64,000 nt of DNA from a virus (Duplodnaviria > Caudoviricetes), in IMG/VR virus record IMGVR_UViG_2517572207_000003; one strand, given 5' to 3'. Positions 35,126-64,000 of the stretch are shown here, piece by piece (within the stretch, counting starts at the first letter, position 1; the number at the start of each line of letters is the position of its first letter). A model generated the notes under the pieces. It made no database searches and was not told where the DNA came from. It saw nothing but the letters and a program-made list of their open reading frames with translations. A program made the translations under genes and the position numbers.

Positions 35126-37288
35126 TTATGTTGACGAGCTACTTGAACTTCCACCAGCGGGAATGTTAACTGTAGCCACAGTTTTTCCTCGGCTGAACAA
35201 TTTTAGATTCCTGGAACCGGGGTCGAATGTTGCATTAACGATTAAACCATTAAACAAATCACCACGTATTTCAGCAATATCATTACGGAAATCTCTGAGA
35301 GTGTTATCAAGACCTTTAATGCTCTCTACTCCTAAAGCCAGTCCACTTATTGTAGCTTCTGAAAAATCTACAGGACCTTTTAAATAAGTGGCATCATCTA
35401 TAGATCGGATAATAATAGGTCCCATGTTGCCTAAATGAAACCCTTCTCTATCTCCGTAGACGCTTCCTCTTGGCGAACCATCATCCATAAACAATAAGCC
35501 GCCACCATCATTATACTGACCTAATGAGACAGCTTCTCCGCCACGAGAATTATAAGCAGTAAGACCATTAGAATTTATTTCTATGCGCCTACCCTCTTTG
35601 GCTGTACGGAATAAGGCCCCTGTAATAATACCGCCTTCTATTTCATTGCCGATCAGTTTACTGCCACGTATTGTACTTGCATTAACTGTACTTGCCCTAA
35701 TATCTGAAGCATTCATTTCTGAGTTATCAATTTGGCCCGTAAGCTTGATTGACCTGGCAACAACATTCCCCTGCATGTCTACCCGGAATGGCGCAATGGT
35801 ATAGTCGTCATTCCCTGCACTGATTCCGTTCGTATTAATTTTGGTTACGTTATTGCCACTACCAATAACCAAGGATACAAAGTTTCCGAGCTGTCCGACA
35901 ATCTGTTCAGCAACAACGCCACGTGCTGTAATTGCTGTTCTTGCTGTTTTACCTCCGTCCGTTGTTAAAACAACCCCGTTTGAAGTCATAATAACTTGGT
36001 TCTGAGCATTGGTCTTGTCCTGTAGGATTATGCCACGTTGATCGTACTTGATTTCCGTTTTGGAATTATCAATGTCGATCACGGCTTGCTTGGCAAAGGA
36101 CTCAAATACTTCCGTTCGGATCTTCCCGTTACTGAACAGATTATTGATAATATTCTTGTTCCGCTCCAGGTCAGAAATGATATCTGCATAGTCCCGTAAA
36201 TTGACATTTGATATGGTAGGCTCACTGTGTTTGTCTCGGCTATACGGATACTCTGTAAGCTCTGTGATTCGGGCTTTAAGTTTGTTCATGTCCATAGCCG
36301 GGTCAATGCACATTACATTGTCGCCCAAAGCTGGTTTAGGTTCAGTATTGTCTATTTTGAACAGGTCCGCCGTCGATACGGTTACCTCCAGCGTCACGTT
36401 TTCCTGTTCAGCAAGCCCCTTACGTGTGGCCTTTAGCAAGTCCTCCGGTTCCTCTATGTCCTGTTCAATGATTTCCCCATCGTAAAAAGGAACCGACTCG
36501 CTGGCCCAATACTGAGCATAAGGTGAAATCAAGTAGTTCACCGCCAGCTTTCCATGCACAATCGTTCCTGGTATGCCTGACAGCAAACTCCGCTCCTCTT
36601 CGGTCAGTTTGGACGCATCCATTCCGATAAAGGTACGTCCATCCTTCATCTGAGCGAACATGCGTGTGACCAAAGATTCACCCTTATCTTTAAAGCTGCT
36701 GGATACGATATTCTTTTTAAGTCGGTACTGTAATCCGCTGTCGGTTCCAATCTTCTTCCTCAGGTTAATAGTGAAGTTGTCCGGTTCAACCTCACACTCA
36801 TACATTTGGATGATCTTGTTGAGAGCTTCCAAGCACGTCCCACGCCCGAAGTCTTTGACATCATGCAAATCGAATGTGTCGTGGATAACGAATTTGAATC
36901 TCCCGCCTGTAGCAGCTGTAATCAGATCCGTGAGTTGATTGAGATGAATTCCATATGCTTCTGCAATGTATGAAGCATATGGAAACTTGTAATCGTTAAG
37001 CTTGAACATGATGTGATTGCAATAGATATTTGCAGTCAGCTTTTTTCCCTCTCGTGATCGGCTACGAGACTGAATAACATAAAATTGGCCACGCTCATCC
37101 TGAACGTGGCCCTTGATTGCTATCTTTTCCCTATAGTCTTCGCTGGTCATCGGGACCATGAAGGTTAATTCATAGTCACTGTTAATCCTGCGCCGCCGCT
37201 GAATGTCATAAGAGTCTACTAGCGTTCCAACACGCCGCATATTCTTATCAAACACTTGCATAGTTGGAGTAGGCATAGTCCACCTCAC
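35126..37288 (-). CDS. phage tail spike/Tal-like (prophage tail) protein
   Basis: RRRINSDYELTF, YRLKKNI, ARITEL; TTDGGKTARTAITA. Confidence 0.85.
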   Translation of the reverse strand: MRWTMPTPTMQVFDKNMRRVGTLVDSYDIQRRRRINSDYELTFMVPMTSEDYREKIAIKGHVQDERGQFYVIQSRSRSREGKKLTANIYCNHIMFKLNDYKFPYASYIAEAYGIHLNQLTDLITAATGGRFKFVIHDTFDLHDVKDFGRGTCLEALNKIIQMYECEVEPDNFTINLRKKIGTDSGLQYRLKKNIVSSSFKDKGESLVTRMFAQMKDGRTFIGMDASKLTEEERSLLSGIPGTIVHGKLAVNYLISPYAQYWASESVPFYDGEIIEQDIEEPEDLLKATRKGLAEQENVTLEVTVSTADLFKIDNTEPKPALGDNVMCIDPAMDMNKLKARITELTEYPYSRDKHSEPTISNVNLRDYADIISDLERNKNIINNLFSNGKIRTEVFESFAKQAVIDIDNSKTEIKYDQRGIILQDKTNAQNQVIMTSNGVVLTTDGGKTARTAITARGVVAEQIVGQLGNFVSLVIGSGNNVTKINTNGISAGNDDYTIAPFRVDMQGNVVARSIKLTGQIDNSEMNASDIRASTVNASTIRGSKLIGNEIEGGIITGALFRTAKEGRRIEINSNGLTAYNSRGGEAVSLGQYNDGGGLLFMDDGSPRGSVYGDREGFHLGNMGPIIIRSIDDATYLKGPVDFSEATISGLALGVESIKGLDNTLRDFRNDIAEIRGDLFNGLIVNATFDPGSRNLKLFSRGKTVATVNIPAGGSSSSSST

Positions 37289-40561: not shown

Positions 40562-43500
40562 TAAGACTTGCCTCCCCTCGTTTGCAACCTCCGTACAAAG
40601 TTGTCCCTTTCGCTCCAAAACACCTTTGCTGCGGATTCGTCTTCAATATAAGTATCACCTGATTTTATTACGAACTGGTTGCTGATTTGCTGCGGATTTG
40701 AACTGCCCGAAGCCATTGGCATTGAAAAATCAGGCATAGAGAAATTAAGTTTCGGCATCTTAAAATTGATAATTTTCCACAAGTTGCTCTGTTGTTGACC
40801 ATTCAAATACATTTCCCCTTCACGGGCAATGACGGGTACCTCTGCTCCCTTCTGGCCTTGAACGATCCCGCCAGAATGGAATTTTTGAAGTTTCCCTGTA
40901 TCCTTCTTAATGCCATACTTATTCCGCAGAGCGGCATTTTCCTCGTGCAGTTTGGTCTTCTCAGCAGCACCTGCTGAATACCATTTATCAATATTGGAAT
41001 TATATCGTGCCAGGTCACTGTCTTTTTCAGAGATTGAGGAACCTGTATCAAAGGATGCAGACAATGAGGTGGCATTGATTTCAGCCATTTTAGCCTGATA
41101 GTCAGCAATAAACTGATCCAACTGACGCAAAATTTCCGCGTTCTTCTCGGTTTCTTTTGAGATTTGAGTATTTTTCAAATCTTCAGCTTTAGATTCAACG
41201 CCGTCTGAATATTCATCGTACTTCTCAGCAAGCCGATCATAATGCTGCTTGGCAGCTTCAATCTGGTCATTGTAATCCTTTTCTCGCTCAGTCTTCTCAT
41301 CTTGAAGCTTTTTCTTTTGATCCTCCAAGCCGCGCTTCGCCAGCGTCCGGTTATGTTCCCGTTGCATATCCTCAATGTCTTTTTCAGTCTGCTTACGTTC
41401 GGCAATACCTTCAGGACCGACAGCAGATTGTAACAGGGAAAGACGCACTTGCTTCTCCGCCATAGCACGATCATAGTCCTCGTCTTCATTAGCTGTCTGC
41501 ATCTTGGCTAACAAGTCGTCTATGGCCTTAATTTTAGCGTCCTGAGCCTCAATAAAAGCATCACGTTCCGCCTCAATACGCTTTACTTCCTCATCCCGAG
41601 TCTTTTCGAGTGCTTCCTTTTCCTTCTTAGCAGCTTCGGCAGTAACCTTCTTCTGATCTTCGAGGAGCTGCTTTTTAAGGTCATGGACCTGTACATCAAT
41701 CTCCATTCGCTGTTCTGTTCCTTCTTTATAAAGAGCCTGCATTTTTGTCCATAAATTGAGCTGATCGGAAACAGATACGGCTTCCATACTCTTTTGGTAA
41801 TTGATTCGTTTTTGGAAGTCGGACAGGAACTCATCTTCCAGAGCTTTACGTTTCTCATAAATCTTCTGCTGCAACTCAAAACTTTGTTCAGCAGTACGAT
41901 CCTTTGCCTTACTCATACGCATATAAGCGTCATATTCCATTTTGAGGATAGCAATTTGGGTTTGCCCCGCCATTTCCATTTTGGAAGTTTCTTTATCAAT
42001 CCATTTTTCCGAGTTTTGGTATCGAAGCTCGTTATACTTCACGGACAGATCATAAATTTGCTTTTGGATTTCACGCCTATTTGCTGGTAGCAAGTAAGAT
42101 TTAGATTGTTCCTTCTTGTAAAAATCCAAGCTGGTTTTTACCATCTCAATTTCTTGTTTGTTGGCCTGCCGCATACGCTCGGTTCTTCGCTCAAGATTCT
42201 CCACGTCTTCCTGAAATCTTGAATCATTCAGTTTCTGAACATCGCGGCTCCATTGCTTCATTGCATCCTTATCTTCCAAAAGGTACTGCTTATGTCGTTG
42301 AGCCAGTCGTTTGTACCCAGCTATTTGCTGGTCTATAGACCATTCATTACGTTCTGCGATGTATTTGAAGTTGTCCATATCATCGCTGTAGGAATCCTTA
42401 CGAGCATCCGCAGCTTCTTTAGCAGCTTTTTTAGCCGATTTTTCTGCATCACTTTTTCCTTTTCTTCCTTTTTTCTCTTTGCTTGATGAACCGCTAACTC
42501 CAAATTTAGGGTCTTTGTATAGCTTCGATAAAGCGTTAATCCGAGTATCAAAGGATTTTGCTTGATTTTCATATTCAGTGTATATTTCATCAAGCTTTTT
42601 TTTGTTATCCAGTTTTTTCTTATCAACATCAAGTTGATTCTTAAAAGGAGCGTTTAAAACTGATCTAATGCCAGTCATGCTATTAAGTTCAGTTTGTCTT
42701 TTCGCAACCTCCAAGGAACTCTGAGCCATTACACCATTGAGAGCAGCTTTTAATTGAGCTAAATTTCTAATAGCTTCTGCTTCAATGCTATAAGCTTTTA
42801 AACGTTCATCAGTAGACACTTTTGTGTTGAATGCTGAAGCTTTCTCGGATTTCAAATCGTCGATTGCTTTCTGAATTTTTGCTTTTCGGAGAACTTCCAC
42901 AGCGTCTTTTTCAAATTTCCATCCATCACTTGTCTTATATATTTCTGCTGCCAGTTGAGGATATTTTAGTATTAGGTCCGTGGCAGCAGCGGCGTTGAGA
43001 GACTGTCCTTTTGAAAGGTCGCTCAAGAGATTATTCATCTCAGATACAGCAGTGCCATTTCCTTGAATTTGCTCCCTTAAATCTGCTAATGCTTCCGCTT
43101 GAGCTTTGGCACTTTCAGCTGCTGTACCCGACTTACCTGCGAATTGATCAACCGCATCAACTGCAACTTGGCCAAGCTGCACTGCGACTTCAGCGGCAGA
43201 GGCGGAAAGTTTATGGTTCTCCTTCTCTAAGCCATTTACTTCGTCTTGGAGAAGCTGAACGGAGTTAGAAGCTTCGTCCAAACTCTTTCCGGTAAAAACG
43301 TTTTTAAAGAACTCTCCCATTTGTGAAGCTAAGCTGTCTTTAACTTTAAGGAGTTTCTCTTTTGTTTGCTCTAGCTCTTCGGTATTCTTTTTCAGCTGAT
43401 TGTTAATCTCGCTTTGTTGATCAGTAAGCATATTCTTTCGTGCTTCATTTTGCTTTGCTATCAGTGTGTTCAAAGCATCAACCTGTATTCGTACAGCCTT

Positions 43501-52873: not shown

Positions 52874-54256
52874 CTACTCTTCAGCGGTGTCAGATTCATC
52901 CTTTTCTGTTTTGTCCTTATCATTCAGCGGATCATCTTCAGGAAGATTGCTTAACAGTTTGTCTTTCTCTCCTTGTAATTCTTCCTGAGTTTTATTTAAA
53001 TCGATAGCTGCGGTATTACCTGGTTGTAATAATACTTCGCCATGTTTATTAGGCAATGCTTTACGCGCCAGACCATCACGTACTTCATCTGGTGTTACAG
53101 TTCTTCTGTCAAGGTAAATTGCATCAATATCGGCTTTTAATTTCTGGTCCTTCAACGAAGTAGCATAGTGGAACTTAAACTCAATTACCCCACCCATCTT
53201 GAAGATCCCGTCAATAATGTGATTGTTGATATGCTCCACAATGTTTTCAGCAATAGACTGGATAGATTCATTCGTGTCATCGTCTTCACTGTCTGCGGTG
53301 CTTCGGTTCACATCTTTCGTTTGGCCCAGCTTTTTTGGTGAGATATCAAAAGCGATAGCCACGATCTCGATCAAGAACCGTTGCCAATCAAGAAACAGCG
53401 CCTTATCGTCCGTAGCTCCCAAATCAAGCACACTTGGGTTCTCTCCTCCGATAATTGGGTTCATTCCCCGTCCCAACACTTCGTTCTCCCAATACGCTCG
53501 AAAAGCAGCCACCGCCTTGCTATCAGCACTCTTACCAAGATTAATCAGCTTCCTAATCACAGTATTTGAAGCCTGTTTCCCAGCAGATCGATGCGCTGAT
53601 ATAAAGCTTTCAACTGATTCCCAAACCGTTTCTAGCGGTGAAAGTCCGAATGGTGTGTTAGTTCTCGGATTCATTCGTATATACATTAGGTCAGAAGACT
53701 TTAAATGAACATATTGCCCGTGAACTCGTTGTGCATAGCGATAAGAATTCTCTTTTCCATCCCAATCGGGATACAAGTCAACAGAGAAAGAATCTACAGG
53801 GTACATCCTAAATGGCCTGAGAGGGTCACCAGCTTTTAATACTTCCGATGAACCCGCGCTACATACAAGCATATCTTCAACAATTTGCTCAATCCATGAA
53901 CGGAACGAGTCACCAGGATTCGGCTTCAGTAATGATCGTTCGATAATCTTACATATTTCCCGGTACTTCTCAGTATCATTTTCGTCAATAGCAGATACGG
54001 ACCAGTTCAGTTTTGTGATTCCGTTCTTGATGACGTTAATTGCTCTACGCGGAATCGGGGATTCTGATAACGTTCGTAAGTTTGTCGGCGTTCGCTTTGG
54101 AGCTGGCTGGTTACTTCCCTTACTCATCATGATACCAAACGGGAATGGGTAACTTTCCGTCTGTCGTTCAGGTTCATTCTTCGGCCTTCCCGCCGCTAGC
54201 CAGTTAATTATCCACTGTCGTACACCCAAATCTGTACCTCCCTTCTGACGCAACAA
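52874..54256 (-). CDS. portal protein
   Basis: PFGLSPLE, IVAIAFDISP..LG, TPDEVR; likely start TTG ~54229. Confidence 0.9.
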   Translation of the reverse strand: MLRQKGGTDLGVRQWIINWLAAGRPKNEPERQTESYPFPFGIMMSKGSNQPAPKRTPTNLRTLSESPIPRRAINVIKNGITKLNWSVSAIDENDTEKYREICKIIERSLLKPNPGDSFRSWIEQIVEDMLVCSAGSSEVLKAGDPLRPFRMYPVDSFSVDLYPDWDGKENSYRYAQRVHGQYVHLKSSDLMYIRMNPRTNTPFGLSPLETVWESVESFISAHRSAGKQASNTVIRKLINLGKSADSKAVAAFRAYWENEVLGRGMNPIIGGENPSVLDLGATDDKALFLDWQRFLIEIVAIAFDISPKKLGQTKDVNRSTADSEDDDTNESIQSIAENIVEHINNHIIDGIFKMGGVIEFKFHYATSLKDQKLKADIDAIYLDRRTVTPDEVRDGLARKALPNKHGEVLLQPGNTAAIDLNKTQEELQGEKDKLLSNLPEDDPLNDKDKTEKDESDTAEE

Positions 54257-54398: not shown

Positions 54399-55217
54399 GT
54401 GATGATAATGCAAAATAAAAACATAAAAAGACTTACTCCAACGCCCGAAACAATTAGGAAGTTGTATCTTCTATCTGGTAATGAGTGCGCTTTTCCAAAG
54501 TGTAATGCGAGAATGATTGATGGTAATGGAAATTTCATTGGTCAAGTATGTCACATTGAAGCTGCTATGCCTGGAGGAGAAAGATTTAATCCAAAGCAAA
54601 CAAATGAAGATAGAAGAGAGTTTAGCAATCTTATGTTAATGTGCTACGAACATCACATAGTCACGAATGATGTTTCTAACTATACTGTGAAAAAATTAAA
54701 AAATATTAAAAAGAATCATGAGGAAAAGTACTTGTCTGCTGTTAATAATATATTAAATTCAGTTACTGACAAGACCAAATCAAACAAATTTACATACGCT
54801 AATTCTTGCACAAAGCTAGTAAATGCTTGGGGCTGGAACCTCAGTGTTGAAGAACAAAAAGCACTTGTAGATGATTTGAACGAAACCTTGAATAATAGTC
54901 TTAATAAATTACCCCAAGAAACAAGGGAATTGCTGGTGGTAATGATAGAGCGATGCAGAGAACAAAAGGTTTATTTACACGAAATATCCAAGGTTACTGG
55001 TATAAGCCTCAGCAAGATGAAAGAAGATATCGATTTACTTATTAGATATAAGATTATTGACGAACCAGAAAGTGACGAATACAGCAATTATTACATTACA
55101 TTCAAACTCATCAAAAAGGAATGGGAATTTTGGGATGATTTAAATGATACATGTAATAATTGCAATATTTCTTTGGAAGAATTGATTATTGGGCTTGATT
55201 TTAGTTTACTTGATTAG
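54399..55217 (+). CDS. HNH-endonuclease-domain moron between terL and portal
   Basis: LY.LSGNECAFP.C...CHIEA..PGG.RF...NLMLMC.EHH...D; AT-rich; opposite strand. Confidence 0.8.
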   Translation: MMIMQNKNIKRLTPTPETIRKLYLLSGNECAFPKCNARMIDGNGNFIGQVCHIEAAMPGGERFNPKQTNEDRREFSNLMLMCYEHHIVTNDVSNYTVKKLKNIKKNHEEKYLSAVNNILNSVTDKTKSNKFTYANSCTKLVNAWGWNLSVEEQKALVDDLNETLNNSLNKLPQETRELLVVMIERCREQKVYLHEISKVTGISLSKMKEDIDLLIRYKIIDEPESDEYSNYYITFKLIKKEWEFWDDLNDTCNNCNISLEELIIGLDFSLLD

Positions 55218-55232
55218 CCTTTCTTACGCTTG

Positions 55233-56663
55233 TCAACCAAATGAAAATACATTTTTGAATTTAATATTTGCAAAAGATAATACAAATGCGTCGGCCCTAT
55301 CCGGTGAGGGTAGGCCGCGCTTTTTCATATCCTCTTTTCGTTCTAAAAATATCTTTCCGTTGCTACCCATCCGCCATTTTCGGGAAGTGAGCTGCGTTAT
55401 AAGTTTCTCGTCATCTGGCAATTGCAGTTCACCCGGCTTGCCAAGCACATAGTTGCTCATATTAGCCTCAAGCATTTCTTTGACATGTCCCCACTGTTCA
55501 GCCCCTAGATTCCCATAATGACCGTCTTCCGCTGCTGATCCATTGTTAACTGGAATGATGGTGTAGCCTAGACTTTTCTCCTCATTAATCTCATTCAATC
55601 TATCTGTTACAGCTCCACCTATTCCACTATCATCAATTCTTATTTCTACTTCGTCCATTTCTGTACGCTCTGCCTTTACATCATCAACCAGGCGTAATAC
55701 CCAGCCTGTGGTTGTCATAGTGTCCTGCTTGTGGTGGAAATGAGTCTTTACCACCTTGCCTCCCATACGTGCGTACATGGTTGTCTCATCGTCTCCAAAA
55801 CGTGCAACGTCAACACCTACAAATAGCTTTGTTCCAGAAGGTTCAATTTTAACTTCATCTTTGGCAAATTCCGCAGCTTCCAGAGAGATGAATGTATCAG
55901 ATTCACCACGGGGAAACTCGCCTTCTACACGAACGCGCCATACATCGCTTCCCTCTCCATATTTCCGTTTAAGCATAGCGATGTTTTCTTTACTCGTTCT
56001 CGGACTGTCCAAACAGGATACCTTACGTGTTTTATAATCAGATCTATCCTTATTGTGCGAATCATAAAAAACACCCGACGTTTTTGTCGGGTTTCCACAC
56101 ATCAGTATTTTATTGAACTCACCCGACAACGTACCTAAAATGGCTTCCATGATTGGATCAGCAACACCCGATGCCTCATCCACAACAAATAGCATGTAGT
56201 CCTCATGAAAGCCTTGCATATTTTCAGGCTTGGTTGCTGTCCGAGCTGTAGCGAACCATCGTTCCTCATAATTTTTCATGTATATTTTGGTCTTAGTCCA
56301 CTTAAGGATTCGTTTCAGCACCGGACTTTTAGATTGCCATTTATTTATCTCAGCCCATAACACGTCATGTAGTTGCTGCCTTGTAGGAGCTGTACAAATT
56401 ACCTTTGGATATGGGAAACACGACAAGAACCATAGAGCTGTTGCCGCTTCTAATCCTGTTTTTCCTACGCCTTGACCTGAACGTACTGAAACACGAGGAT
56501 TATTAGCTAAATCCATTAGAGTGCTTGCCTGCCAATCATCAGGATAGAACTTAAGCATCTCTTGACAGAACAATGTGGGATTCTTGCGATACTCAGGAAT
56601 CCTTTTCTTGAATGCTTGAAGTCTCCGTTTCGTCTCCGGTGAGTCCTTCGTCTTCATCGCCAA
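55233..56663 (-). CDS. terL: terminase large subunit
   Basis: SGQGVGKT Walker A, VVDEASG Walker B, GNPT, GVDVARFGDD, SPDRADA. Confidence 0.95.
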   Translation of the reverse strand: MAMKTKDSPETKRRLQAFKKRIPEYRKNPTLFCQEMLKFYPDDWQASTLMDLANNPRVSVRSGQGVGKTGLEAATALWFLSCFPYPKVICTAPTRQQLHDVLWAEINKWQSKSPVLKRILKWTKTKIYMKNYEERWFATARTATKPENMQGFHEDYMLFVVDEASGVADPIMEAILGTLSGEFNKILMCGNPTKTSGVFYDSHNKDRSDYKTRKVSCLDSPRTSKENIAMLKRKYGEGSDVWRVRVEGEFPRGESDTFISLEAAEFAKDEVKIEPSGTKLFVGVDVARFGDDETTMYARMGGKVVKTHFHHKQDTMTTTGWVLRLVDDVKAERTEMDEVEIRIDDSGIGGAVTDRLNEINEEKSLGYTIIPVNNGSAAEDGHYGNLGAEQWGHVKEMLEANMSNYVLGKPGELQLPDDEKLITQLTSRKWRMGSNGKIFLERKEDMKKRGLPSPDRADAFVLSFANIKFKNVFSFG

Positions 56664-57876
56664 CCACCGCCTCTACCCAATCGTCAATTAAATCGTCTTC
56701 TGAATTTCCTTCTCCAGTGACCTTTGCCCTTTCAAGCTCAAGTTTCTCACGTTGCATCTTAAGTTTCTCGTCTTCAACCATCCGTTTATGTTTGTCTGGA
56801 AGCAGATCCATGTATTTAGTTAGCACGTCCAATGCCTTGGTTTTGTCGTGTAGCTTTACGCTCACTCCATCCTTACCCTGCTTGACTTCTGAAACCAGAG
56901 TTCCATCAATTTCATCGCTGTTTTTAAAAGAGACATAATTGTATCTGTACTTCTTCGTTTCTCCAGTGTCAGGATCAAACACAGGATCTCCTTCTAAGCC
57001 AAGAACATCTTCTTCCTTTTGACCGAATTCTACGTAATCCGTAATGTCTGCGAAAGCAATCTTCATGTACTCCATTAGAACTCGCTGAGCATTTAAACCC
57101 ACCTCGTCGATCATTGTTTCCTTGTGCTGCCGAATAATGTTTTGGATTTCAACTTTCTTCAACAGAGCGAAACCAATCTGATAGGCAGTTTTCTTACTGT
57201 ATCCCGCCGCAATCGCTGACCTGGTAGCGTTGAAGTCTCGAAGGTATTCATAAGTGAATATCCTTTGCTTAGGCGTTAATCCATCCTCATCGGGAATTTC
57301 CGGTTCAGGTTCTTCAACAACCGTTGGAGCACTCTGTACTTTTTTGGAACGTTCCATATTACCGGAGCGTTCCGGTACTTTTTTCGGAGCGCTCCGTATT
57401 TTTGGAGTTTCCCCCAGCTCTTTTGATAGTGCATCAACAGTAAGCAGAGTAGCATATACTTCCCTCGGCTTATCACCTTGATATGTACCAATGAATTTGC
57501 GCCGCTCCATTTCATCAATCAGTCGGGCCGCTCTGCTATAACCTATCCTCATTCTTCTCTGTAATAAAGAAACCGAGGCTTGTTTGGCCTCGGCTACAAT
57601 TTGGACAGCTTTTAGAAAAAGATCGTCTGGATATGATGTTGTATCTTCATCTTTCTTTGCAGGTTCATTTTTTTTATCAGTTTCATCTTCATCGGAACGT
57701 TCCGTATGTTTCGCTTCTCCAATCAAACTCTCCCACTTATCTTTAGCCTTCCATCCTCTTACCGTACCTTCAGATACACTAAGCTGAGATGCTATATCTG
57801 TGAGACGTATGTTGCCGGAACTGGCTTTGTATAAATCAAATGCTTCGTCCCGTTTAGGATCTCTCTTTCGTCCCAT
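56593..57876 (-). CDS. terS: terminase small subunit with internal FtsK/SpoIIIE gamma domain
   Basis: N-terminal HTH (TVRGWKAKDKW); ASVSLLQRRMRIGYSRAARLIDEME...KPREV gamma motif; LTPKQRIF..EYL.DFNATRSAIAAGYS TerS domain. Confidence 0.88.
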   Translation of the reverse strand: MGRKRDPKRDEAFDLYKASSGNIRLTDIASQLSVSEGTVRGWKAKDKWESLIGEAKHTERSDEDETDKKNEPAKKDEDTTSYPDDLFLKAVQIVAEAKQASVSLLQRRMRIGYSRAARLIDEMERRKFIGTYQGDKPREVYATLLTVDALSKELGETPKIRSAPKKVPERSGNMERSKKVQSAPTVVEEPEPEIPDEDGLTPKQRIFTYEYLRDFNATRSAIAAGYSKKTAYQIGFALLKKVEIQNIIRQHKETMIDEVGLNAQRVLMEYMKIAFADITDYVEFGQKEEDVLGLEGDPVFDPDTGETKKYRYNYVSFKNSDEIDGTLVSEVKQGKDGVSVKLHDKTKALDVLTKYMDLLPDKHKRMVEDEKLKMQREKLELERAKVTGEGNSEDDLIDDWVEAVVGDEDEGLTGDETETSSIQEKDS

Positions 57877-58131
57877 ATCTTATTATTCACCCCTTTTGAT
57901 AATGTATCTGAAGCTAAGGAAAAGTTTCCTGAACAAATAAAAAAGCACCTATTAAGGTGCTAGGTGCTAAATCTAGCTTTATCGCATCATTGAAATCACG
58001 TAAAAATAATTTTTTATATCGACATTTCTTTACATATTTCCCGAGTTTTTTAATTTTGATAGTTGTATAATCCTCTTAATGGTAGCTGGAAACTATCCGG
58101 CTATCAAAAAAGTGAGAGGAGATTTTTAAGA

Positions 58132-58635
58132 ATGAAAAAGTTGGTTTCTATTTTGCTCACATTTGCCCTTTTGTTATCCGTGTCCGTAACAGCATTTGCA
58201 GAAGAAGCAACACCTACTAACCAGCAAGATGCAAAATACTCCATCAGTGTTGGTGATTCCGACATCGAATTGGCTAAAGGAGAAACTGTTGAAATACCTC
58301 TTACATTAATCCCTAAAGAAGGAACGGTTCATCCCAATGTTGATTTCCCTGGCACTGGGGGAATCCTTTCCTTAACTGCTGGGGCCAATTATGTCTTTTA
58401 CAGAATAACTCCGTCGGTTCCAATAGATAATTTCACTGGAATAATGAGTATCACAGATTTGACTTCTGGATTAAGTAATGGGAATGCAATTGTATCTGGA
58501 TTAGCAGGTCAAGTTGCTTATTCTGGTTATAGGAATCATACGTACCGCGCTTCTTTGGACGGTACAGGCACTTTACTTGGAATCCCTTATATTAATACTA
58601 ACCCAAATGGGATTACTTGGACACATAATTGGTAA
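58132..58635 (+). CDS. secreted hypothetical protein (moron)
   Basis: signal peptide MKKLVSILLTFALLLSVSVTAFA; RBS GAGGAG. Confidence 0.75.
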   Translation: MKKLVSILLTFALLLSVSVTAFAEEATPTNQQDAKYSISVGDSDIELAKGETVEIPLTLIPKEGTVHPNVDFPGTGGILSLTAGANYVFYRITPSVPIDNFTGIMSITDLTSGLSNGNAIVSGLAGQVAYSGYRNHTYRASLDGTGTLLGIPYINTNPNGITWTHNW

Positions 58636-58691
58636 TATTAGTTGAATTATATAAAGAAGCTTACAGTCATTGACTATAAGCTTCTTTTCTA

Positions 58692-59144
58692 TTATAGAGT
58701 TGGTTTAAACAAATAGTGTAAGAAAAGACTTGTAACAGTTAAACTATATTTTTTGTCTATTGAGATCGACTTTGGGTCTTTCATAAATTGCTGTACATCA
58801 TTCGTGTCTAACTTGGCATACAGTGCTATGGTTTCATATGAAATACCCCAATGCTGATTCAAAATATCAATAACGCCCTTTACTCGCTCACTTTCGTCTA
58901 TCATTTGGATTCCATTAGCGAGCATAAAAAGCAAACTATCGAAATTCAGTTTAGAATGCGAATTACCTAATTCAGAAAAATCATTCTTGCCATTTAAATA
59001 TCCCAAAATTACGTCTTCTTCAATTCCAGAAATTTTACTTAGGGTATCTGTAGTTATCTTGTAGACTTCCAAAACTCGTTTTAACAGCGCTCTAGGCCCA
59101 TCTTCACCTTCGGACCCGTTGCTTGTGTCCCCATATAATTTCAT
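58692..59144 (-). CDS. HTH domain protein
   Basis: two helix-turn-helix-like segments. Confidence 0.6.
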   Translation of the reverse strand: MKLYGDTSNGSEGEDGPRALLKRVLEVYKITTDTLSKISGIEEDVILGYLNGKNDFSELGNSHSKLNFDSLLFMLANGIQMIDESERVKGVIDILNQHWGISYETIALYAKLDTNDVQQFMKDPKSISIDKKYSLTVTSLFLHYLFKPTL

Positions 59145-59591
59145 TAAAGAAAACCCCTTTCATATAAATTCTTCTCCGACACGATGTACGCTAACTGATA
59201 TATCATCCTTTTATTCCAGTTCCATACCTCCACTTCCAAATGAATAATTATATATATCATTATAACCAAAAGATGGGGATTTTTGTTGCATTGATTCATT
59301 TCATCTAATCATACAAATTTAGAAAATTGTCCTGATTTAACTTAGCAAAAAGAAGGAAATAGATTCCCATCTGCCTCGTTATTATAGATTGATGAGGTTG
59401 AGGAAAAGCTTCCCGAACAAATAAAAGAGCAACGATTTCACGCTGCTCTACTGTAGTGATCAGTAATTTATAAAATGCGGTTACCGCTAATCCGCCATGC
59501 CTGGAATAGGCCTTCAATGGACATCCTTCTTGCTCCGGGTTTATATTACCCTCTGAGTCCTGTCTCCGATTTAGTTTTAGTTTTGGAAAAA

Positions 59592-63933: not shown

Positions 63934-64000
63934 GTATATCTCTCCTTTATAGGTAGTAGGGGGAAACTATTTAATGTGAATTTCGCGCGGCTTATCCCCT

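Follow-up and report, generated by a model that had tools for sequence, protein, structure and literature searches.

A small terminase of a Paenibacillus prophage carries an FtsK gamma domain as an optional cassette

Why would the small subunit of a phage terminase carry the gamma domain of a bacterial chromosome translocase, and what might it read there? The question is raised by the gene terS (56593..57876, minus strand, ATG start) in a 64,000-nucleotide (nt) stretch of viral DNA, IMG/VR record IMGVR_UViG_2517572207_000003 (Duplodnaviria; Caudoviricetes), referred to here as the window. A first reading made from the sequence alone had described the 427-amino-acid (aa) product of this open reading frame (ORF), the small terminase TerS, as a helix-turn-helix (HTH), an FtsK/SpoIIIE gamma domain and a classic small terminase domain joined by linkers in one frame. 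It had also proposed that the packaging motor may use host polarity motifs, the FtsK-orienting polar sequences (KOPS) or SpoIIIE recognition sequences (SRS), for the choice of the packaging site (pac) or for packaging direction, with transduction promoted as a result, or that it may compete with SpoIIIE in sporulating cells. We find that the gamma domain is genuine and that it behaves as an optional cassette among related terminases. Its matching to the host and a separate palindrome array bear on what it may do.

An FtsK gamma domain between two DNA-binding modules

The proposed architecture was borne out by Pfam, by matches in the PDB and by a fold model. PHROGs assigns TerS to the terminase small subunit (phrog_2606, 3.1e-86, among the terminase small subunit families). 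The N-terminus (aa 1-50; 57727..57876, minus strand) matches the Phage_terminase HTH family PF10668 (E 6.9e-20; 71 bits against a gathering score of 22), with the recognition helix GTVRGWKAKDKW and a predicted local distance difference test (pLDDT) score of 78-90. Linker 1 (aa 51-83; 57628..57726, minus strand), predicted to be disordered with pLDDT below 50 at aa 55-81, leads to the FtsK_gamma winged-helix cassette (PF09397; aa 84-142; 57451..57627, minus strand), in which the segment DDLFLKAV...KPREV spans aa 84-140. Linker 2 (aa 143-199; 57280..57450, minus strand) is again mostly disordered, with pLDDT below 50 in three segments between aa 156 and 184 (156-164, 168-174 and 176-184). It is followed by a Terminase_2 module of the SF6/SPP1 G1P type (PF03592, E 1.2e-45; aa 200-377; 56746..57279, minus strand) comprising an HTH of its own and an oligomerisation core. 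The acidic C-terminal tail (aa 378-427; 56596..56745, minus strand; low pLDDT) overlaps the start of terL in the DNA and may have a role in contacting the large terminase TerL. All three Pfam families lie in a single reading frame, and since Terminase_2 brings its own HTH, each TerS subunit holds three DNA-binding modules.

Identification of the gamma domain is strong by every method used. The PF09397 match reaches E 2.9e-25 (88.2 bits against the gathering cut-off of 30.6), and a hidden Markov model (HMM) scan of the whole genome places an FtsK_gamma match of 92.5 bits at the same position in terS. In a PDB sequence search the segment aligns without gaps to the FtsK gamma chains 2j5p, 2ve8/2ve9 and 5dcf (E ~1e-10). 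From a 40-sequence alignment, AlphaFold2 gave a model (mean pLDDT 72) with three confidently folded modules, aa 1-52, 84-155 and 200-386, in which aa 84-142 reach pLDDT 75-92. Foldseek matches the gamma module to 2j5p and 2ve9 and superposes it on the latter, the KOPS-bound FtsK gamma of P. aeruginosa, with a template modeling (TM) score of 0.87-0.90 by target length and a root-mean-square deviation (rmsd) of 1.2-1.3 Å across 58-59 columns. The core module is placed on the SF6 small terminase (3zqq, E 1.2e-4; 4zc3, TM 0.91; 2cmp). Both the HMM search and the structure prediction thus confirm that TerS carries a genuine FtsK gamma domain, with a match far beyond chance. Pfam found in TerS no alpha/beta ATPase motor (PF01580) of the kind that an FtsK/SpoIIIE translocase carries.

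Phage proteins of this kind have been described before. A tblastn search of the gamma segment against phage records returned the Bacillus phages Sam112 and Sam46, with the product named 'FtsK gamma domain-containing small terminase subunit'. In the paper on vB_BcM_Sam46 and vB_BcM_Sam112 (Sci Rep 2021; PMC8190038), their TerS, a gamma domain plus Terminase_2, was called the first such fusion. Its authors proposed that translocation may be oriented by KOPS/SRS-like loading sites in the phage genome, and that binding of the terminase to host SRS sites may lead to the mispackaging of host DNA (PMC8190038). The accessible text contains no experiment on gamma and no HTH, gamma and core architecture. 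Our literature search found only this paper joining 'small terminase' with 'KOPS'; 'FtsK_gamma' with 'terminase' gave, among the matches listed, this paper and one on S. aureus chromosome segregation, and a search for 'PF10668' found no paper. The fusion and the KOPS/SRS and transduction hypotheses are thus already in print and will not surprise specialists. What is new is the three-domain variant with gamma inserted between HTH and core, together with the optional-cassette behavior, the host matching and the HTH-linked palindrome array described below.

The TerS proteins of Sam46 and Sam112 resemble that of the window in carrying FtsK_gamma N-terminal to the Terminase_2 core, connected by a basic linker, and their gammas are ~60% identical to the window's. 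They differ in that gamma is their sole extra DNA-binding domain, whereas in the window the PF10668 HTH precedes it. Sam112 TerS has 254 aa, with gamma at the very N-terminus and PF09397 and PF03592 as its only domains, and its core bears only a weak resemblance to that of the window TerS, the BLASTP alignment being limited to aa 84-248. The two fusions therefore probably arose separately. The phages differ too, Sam46 and Sam112 being virulent or temperate myoviruses of the B. cereus group and the window phage a Paenibacillus prophage. Compared with the SF6 and SPP1 G1P small terminases, which share the Terminase_2 DNA-binding domain, the oligomerisation core and a gene directly upstream of terL, the window TerS has ~200 extra N-terminal residues holding two further DNA-binding domains. 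The TerS proteins of PM1, phi4J1, BMBtp3 and the thermophilic phage D6E have a PF10668-type N-terminus and Terminase_2 (42-52% identity, in two pieces) but lack gamma, which the matches skip. Finally, TerS gamma shares with the FtsK/SpoIIIE gammas (2j5p, 2ve8, 2ve9, 5dcf) a common fold (rmsd 0.8-1.8 Å) and equivalent recognition-helix residues, but it lies between two other DNA-binding domains, whereas gamma in the translocases is C-terminal to the motor.

We examined the distribution of the architecture in the window TerS and its best 120 relatives. Of these 121 proteins, 77 have HTH, gamma and core, 36 have HTH and core, and eight are truncated gene calls; the named sources are Paenibacillus, Cohnella, Brevibacillus and one Bacillus thuringiensis record, and some of the relatives are automatically named 'cell division protein FtsK'. 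The three-domain form is thus common in prophages of Paenibacillus, Brevibacillus and Cohnella. No cultured-phage record covers 80% of the TerS query. Gamma matches in Enterococcus, Listeria and gut 'phage' records were considered as further TerS candidates and rejected, being proteins of 555 aa (cut by the record end) to 898 aa with a C-terminal gamma that look like FtsK.

In a tree built from the Terminase_2 core (118 rows, without three truncated calls), the presence of gamma requires 13 changes, and well-supported branches force at least 10 of these. One pair of relatives illustrates the exchange: P0040 (404 aa) has gamma and P0063 (317 aa) lacks it, the two share 90% identity in the HTH and 84-100% in the core, and the 84-aa cassette of the former is swapped for four residues in the latter. 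Gamma is therefore an in-frame optional cassette in the HTH-core linker, and the existence of close relatives without it means that packaging as such needs no gamma. Such near-identical small terminases with and without gamma are natural, ready-made controls.

We then compared the DNA-reading residues. E. coli numbering was fitted onto the ungapped PDB alignment, and the residues named in the literature agree at a single offset: TerS S114, R118, D121, E124 and R107 correspond to E. coli N1296, R1300, E1303, E1306 and R1289. In E. coli FtsK gamma, N1296, R1300 and E1303 read KOPS (PMC2533119), and roles have been described for E1306 (PMC2680272) and for R1289, R1280 and R1297 (PMC5052618). Among 78 TerS gammas and 19 host FtsK gammas from 19 genera, position 118 is Arg in 71 and Lys in 5 of the TerS gammas (Arg in 19/19 host sequences), position 121 is Asp in 55 and Glu in 19 (Asp in 18/19), position 124 is Glu in all 78 (18/19) and position 107 is Arg in 76 (19/19). 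Position 114 is Thr in 42 and Ser in 34, with Thr in 17 of the 19 host sequences. Q106, P137 and R138 are each present in all 78 TerS gammas. By these residues, TerS gamma appears equipped for KOPS reading, and their retention makes the reading of a host-type polar octamer plausible.

The host of the prophage has one chromosomal FtsK/SpoIIIE translocase with gamma, encoded by a separate 894-aa gene. Its gamma and that of TerS are identical at 42 of 59 aa (71%), with one residue different in the recognition helix, whereas their DNA is identical at only 112 of 177 nt, and third positions agree in 20 of the 42 identical codons. Amino-acid identity kept in the face of such nucleotide divergence implies that the capture is old and has been held by selection.

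To this single pair we added ten named Paenibacillus, Cohnella and Brevibacillus genomes with a gamma-bearing TerS, extracting from each of the 11 genomes the TerS gamma and the host FtsK gamma; the TerS gamma of P. oleatilyticus was left out. All 12 TerS gammas are nearer to the host FtsK gammas of their own group than to those of the other (70.9 vs 65.5% identity in Paenibacillaceae, 75.4 vs 69.5% in Brevibacillus), while between the groups TerS gammas share 61.2% identity and host FtsK gammas 77.9%. TerS gammas follow their hosts at four of six host-diagnostic columns (aa 98 K/Q, 99 Q/T, 102 V/A and 109 M/L), and a maximum-likelihood tree joins the TerS and FtsK gammas of Brevibacillus with support 99/95. 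This pattern suggests repeated capture of gamma or its co-evolution with the host, and the ligand of gamma is likely to be something host-specific. Host matching and the optional cassette together make clean experiments possible.

A palindrome array that tracks the N-terminal HTH

A second DNA-level feature lies within terS itself. Three 10-bp motifs of the palindrome class GGA[AG]CG[CT]TCC (GGARCGYTCC) start at 57346, 57364 and 57386 (57346..57395), spaced by 18 and 22 nt, in the DNA that codes for linker 2 between gamma and core. The motif scan found a fourth copy, GGAACGTTCC (57694..57703; gene nt 174, in linker 1), upstream of the gamma cassette and identical to the copy at 57346, so that the cassette sits inside the array. 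These identical repeats flank gamma in frame, 348 nt apart, and would ease its loss and re-acquisition. A contig end at 57350 falls inside the array and is most simply an assembly break at the repeats.

The motif keeps its place in relatives. It occurs 133 times in a set of 129 non-redundant related loci, and 120 of these copies are found in the 200 nt preceding the core. It precedes the core in all 33 loci with gamma, in 20 of 43 with HTH and core, and in none of the 53 loci without a PF10668 HTH. Its presence follows the HTH closely: at least one exact copy occurs in 54 of the 55 loci whose HTH reads GT[VIL]RGWK and in none of the 21 loci with other recognition helices. The terS genes of PM1, D6E, phi4J1 and BMBtp3 contain no GGARCGYTCC copy, nor does the first 4.2 kb of Sam112, and relatives without the array carry different HTH recognition helices. 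The host chromosome has 29 copies in 5.86 Mb (~22 by uniform chance), and the sole other pair within 60 nt (3835236-3835270) has no exact GT[VIL]RGWK peptide encoded within 900 nt.

The association also holds when the search starts from DNA. A scan of viral contigs for a two-copy pattern returned at least 103 loci, and 97 of 103 among the matches listed encode a GT[VIL]RGWK HTH. Among these listed matches the HTH is joined to a different, non-Terminase_2 C-terminal part in 63 of the 97 loci, and for 61 of the 63 every copy is found immediately downstream of the DNA that codes for the HTH and in frame with it.

We asked at which level the motif is constrained. Across copies it occurs in all three reading frames (72, 35 and 20 copies), and in the window terS one copy codes for R-S-A-P, the others for E-R-S. 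Within the motif, Arg is encoded only by CGT or CGC, while the same genes freely use AGA and AGG. The use of all frames and the fixed Arg codons therefore indicate a constraint on the nucleic acid. From these sequence patterns we infer that the PF10668 HTH and the array may form a cognate pair of protein and site. Most simply, the array would be a pac or terminase-binding site; as a candidate pac it is better than any KOPS-like site, and the pair offers a concrete pac candidate for a large group of PF10668-type small terminases. A literature string search for GGAACGTTCC gave no phage paper by title among the matches listed.

Possible roles of the gamma domain

Taken together, these features can be arranged into a division of labor. 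The PF10668 HTH would read the GGARCGYTCC array and provide phage-specific initiation of packaging at pac, and the SF6-type core would provide the ring and the contact with TerL. Gamma, displayed many times on the TerS ring as on the FtsK hexamer, would bind a host-type G-rich polar octamer of the KOPS/SRS class; such binding would add avidity and possibly direction, and could permit the terminase to start on host DNA. In FtsK, one KOPS is read by three of the hexamer's gamma domains, and binding improves when gammas are joined covalently as trimers (PMC3384302). By analogy the TerS ring, presumably larger than a hexamer, would supply the multivalency. We thus favor a reading in which gamma serves as a sequence-reading, host-matched accessory DNA anchor, and give it a probability of about 0.5. 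If terminase gamma does bind host polar octamers, sequence would dictate where packaging starts on host DNA and in which direction it runs, and this would constitute a gene-transfer mechanism in soil Bacillales. A stronger version, in which the cassette derives from the FtsK of each host genus, or has stayed matched to it, and a gamma ring loads the motor at host KOPS/SRS in a set direction and so yields oriented (origin-to-terminus) generalized or lateral transducers while the phage's own packaging uses the HTH-palindrome pair, we consider improbable.

Several observations weigh against the accessory-anchor reading. Position 114 is Ser or Thr and not the Asn of E. coli, a state that matches the hosts' own FtsK. 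The KOPS-binding and XerD-binding faces of gamma overlap (PMC5052618), so the conserved residues are compatible with DNA reading and protein contact alike. An approximately unbiased (AU) test fails to reject a single clade of all TerS gammas (p 0.161, 59 columns), and host matching is therefore carried by the four of six diagnostic columns; on the same test, independent capture is suggested rather than demonstrated. The array might act as an mRNA or cruciform structure instead of binding a protein (fold z -5.7). The remaining points come from the DNA that gamma would read. In this host chromosome GAGAAGGG is polar, with 164 leading and 29 lagging copies, but it does not stand out among G-rich octamers (z 1.0 relative to a maximal-order Markov expectation); because many of these are equally skewed, skew does not define the host's own KOPS. 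We searched both strands of the prophage for GAGAAGGG, GGGNAGGG, GAGNAGGG and G-rich purine runs. In its ~46 kb, GAGAAGGG occurs once, at 35441 on the minus strand, a 7-mer is present at 56708, and the search found no KOPS-like cluster near terS or in the upstream intergenic regions. In 20 gamma-bearing IMG/VR viral loci, GAGAAGGG on the terS strand was in excess (23 seen vs 8.5-10.9 expected), unlike in 60 gamma-less loci (14 vs 16-21), and had no fixed position relative to terS. The excess was not replicated in 13 further non-overlapping gamma-bearing loci from named genomes (10 vs 6.5-7.4 expected, P 0.22), and seven gamma-less Paenibacillus and Brevibacillus prophages show a similar mild excess (5 vs ~3). 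We therefore dropped SRS enrichment as a host-taxon effect.

These results divide the proposal that gamma reads host polarity motifs for pac choice or direction. The reading of such motifs stays plausible by the kept residues, whereas the choice of pac by gamma is weakened by the lone GAGAAGGG, the unreplicated excess, the optional nature of the cassette and the separate HTH-linked array. A stricter account would nevertheless make the phage pac itself a KOPS/SRS-like site, with gamma selecting both pac and packaging direction. One argument for it comes from Sam46, in whose TerS gamma is the sole extra DNA-binding domain. Its terminase cut was mapped to ~position 40,843, ~4.5 kb upstream of terS (PMC8190038), and falls in the G-rich TTGGGGGAAAGGCAAGAG, two mismatches from KOPS or SRS in our reading, not that of the authors, a hint of a KOPS/SRS-like pac. 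Moreover, GAGAAGGG lies almost only on the terS strand in gamma-bearing loci (33 vs 1). The same bias is seen in gamma-less loci (22 vs 9), however, no site holds a fixed place relative to terS in the 20 gamma-bearing loci and none is near the window terS, close relatives package without gamma, and a different conserved array tracks the HTH. We regard this account as doubtful, below the decoy role discussed next and above the idea of an idle gamma. That last and least probable view takes gamma as a generic DNA-binding addition without sequence specificity, or as a nearly neutral passenger that recombination between terS alleles has spread. Frequent gain and loss on the core tree would fit, as would the identical in-frame repeats that make loss and re-acquisition easy; yet the base-contacting positions are near-invariant in the 78 TerS gammas although synonymous sites have diverged from host ftsK to saturation, and in Sam112, where BLASTP aligns only gamma and the first HTH, gamma is also fused to a distantly related Terminase_2 core.

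Two further accounts were weighed. TerS gamma might touch a protein, namely a host Xer-type recombinase, the prophage tyrosine integrase or host FtsK, and so couple packaging to excision, dimer resolution or the division machinery; we hold this to be unlikely, on a par with oriented transduction. R107, the equivalent of the E. coli R1289 that makes the key salt bridge with XerD (PMC5052618), is kept in 76 of the 78 TerS gammas, the host-tracking aa 98 and 99 equal E. coli 1280 and 1281 beside the XerD face, matching at the level of the host genus is what a protein partner would demand, and the prophage does have a tyrosine integrase. The residues that contact XerD also face DNA, however, TerS is a late gene product made when excision is normally over, and changes at R1280 gave wild-type recombination (PMC5052618). 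Alternatively, and somewhat less probably still, gamma could act as a decoy: a gamma ring would occupy host KOPS/SRS or mix with FtsK gamma, block FtsK/SpoIIIE loading and stall division or spore DNA transfer in lytic growth, which corresponds to the competition proposed in the first reading. A single chromosomal translocase with gamma and a TerS recognition helix one residue away from its own would suit this, as would a second, stand-alone gamma gene that the same prophage carries in its early region, ~6 kb upstream of terS. This 65-aa FtsK_gamma gene (63967..64000 in the window, continuing to the genome-equivalent of 64164; minus strand; Pfam 3.8e-22) nevertheless has an altered recognition helix (at the equivalents of V114, W115 and K118) and was found in none of the 80 related viral loci examined. 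TerS, for its part, is a late product formed minutes before lysis, and a block of division at that point brings little benefit.

The prophage and its variable slots

We placed terS in its genomic context with PHROGs scans of the neighboring genes and of 20 kb past the window end. The gene lies directly upstream of terL (55233..56663, minus strand; phrog_2, 1.7e-46; 55-65% identity to the TerL of phiCD27, phiEf11 and B83), and it shares one strand with terL, the portal gene (52874..54256, minus strand; PF04860, 1.4e-33) and the head and tail genes. In the left part of the prophage, holin and endolysin genes at 32-34 kb are followed by tail, tape measure and head genes. After terS come early genes for RusA, a sliding clamp, DnaC/DnaD-like loaders, a ParB-like nuclease and an antirepressor, and a repressor and the tyrosine integrase lie ~14 kb past the window end. 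The terS gene thus belongs to an apparently complete temperate tailed prophage of ~46 kb. The closest protein to TerS (97% identity) is named terminase small subunit of Paenibacillus polymyxa, and the host is a genome of the P. polymyxa group. The chromosome measures 5.86 Mb and, judged by its skew, has its origin near 0 and its terminus near 2.84 Mb. The window corresponds to 3.18-3.24 Mb, so that the leading strand carries the phage genes.

Another unusual gamma is encoded outside the chromosome. On a 367-kb second replicon of the same genome, a 1374-aa open frame (~118731-122855, minus strand) joins a type IA topoisomerase, an FtsK gamma, a Toprim C-terminal repeat and an FtsK alpha/motor part, with gamma N-terminal of the motor, an unusual order. 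Among 120 other genomes of the family, many of which lacked small stretches, only the host FtsK gamma turned up.

The DNA around the terminase genes varies between sequencing runs. A terminator-like hairpin with a T-run (57944-57961, minus strand) lies ~70 nt upstream of the terS start codon, so the late operon may need antitermination or a promoter of its own. Just upstream of terS, the stretch 57953-59450 holds a plus-strand ORF of 190 aa whose N-terminus is signal-like, as well as a PF20317 HTH_60 gene; contigs from three other sequencing runs have ~351 different letters in its place. This stretch is the second variable slot flanking the terminase genes. The other lies between terL and the portal gene, on the opposite strand (54399-55217, plus strand), and encodes a 272-aa ORF with an N-terminal HNH-type nuclease domain resembling anti-phage defence effectors (PADLOC PDC-M68A, 6.5e-25; SduA, 1.4e-19; CBASS endonuclease effectors). 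In the contig of one other run this stretch is swapped for 1240 other letters, and it therefore looks like a cargo slot.

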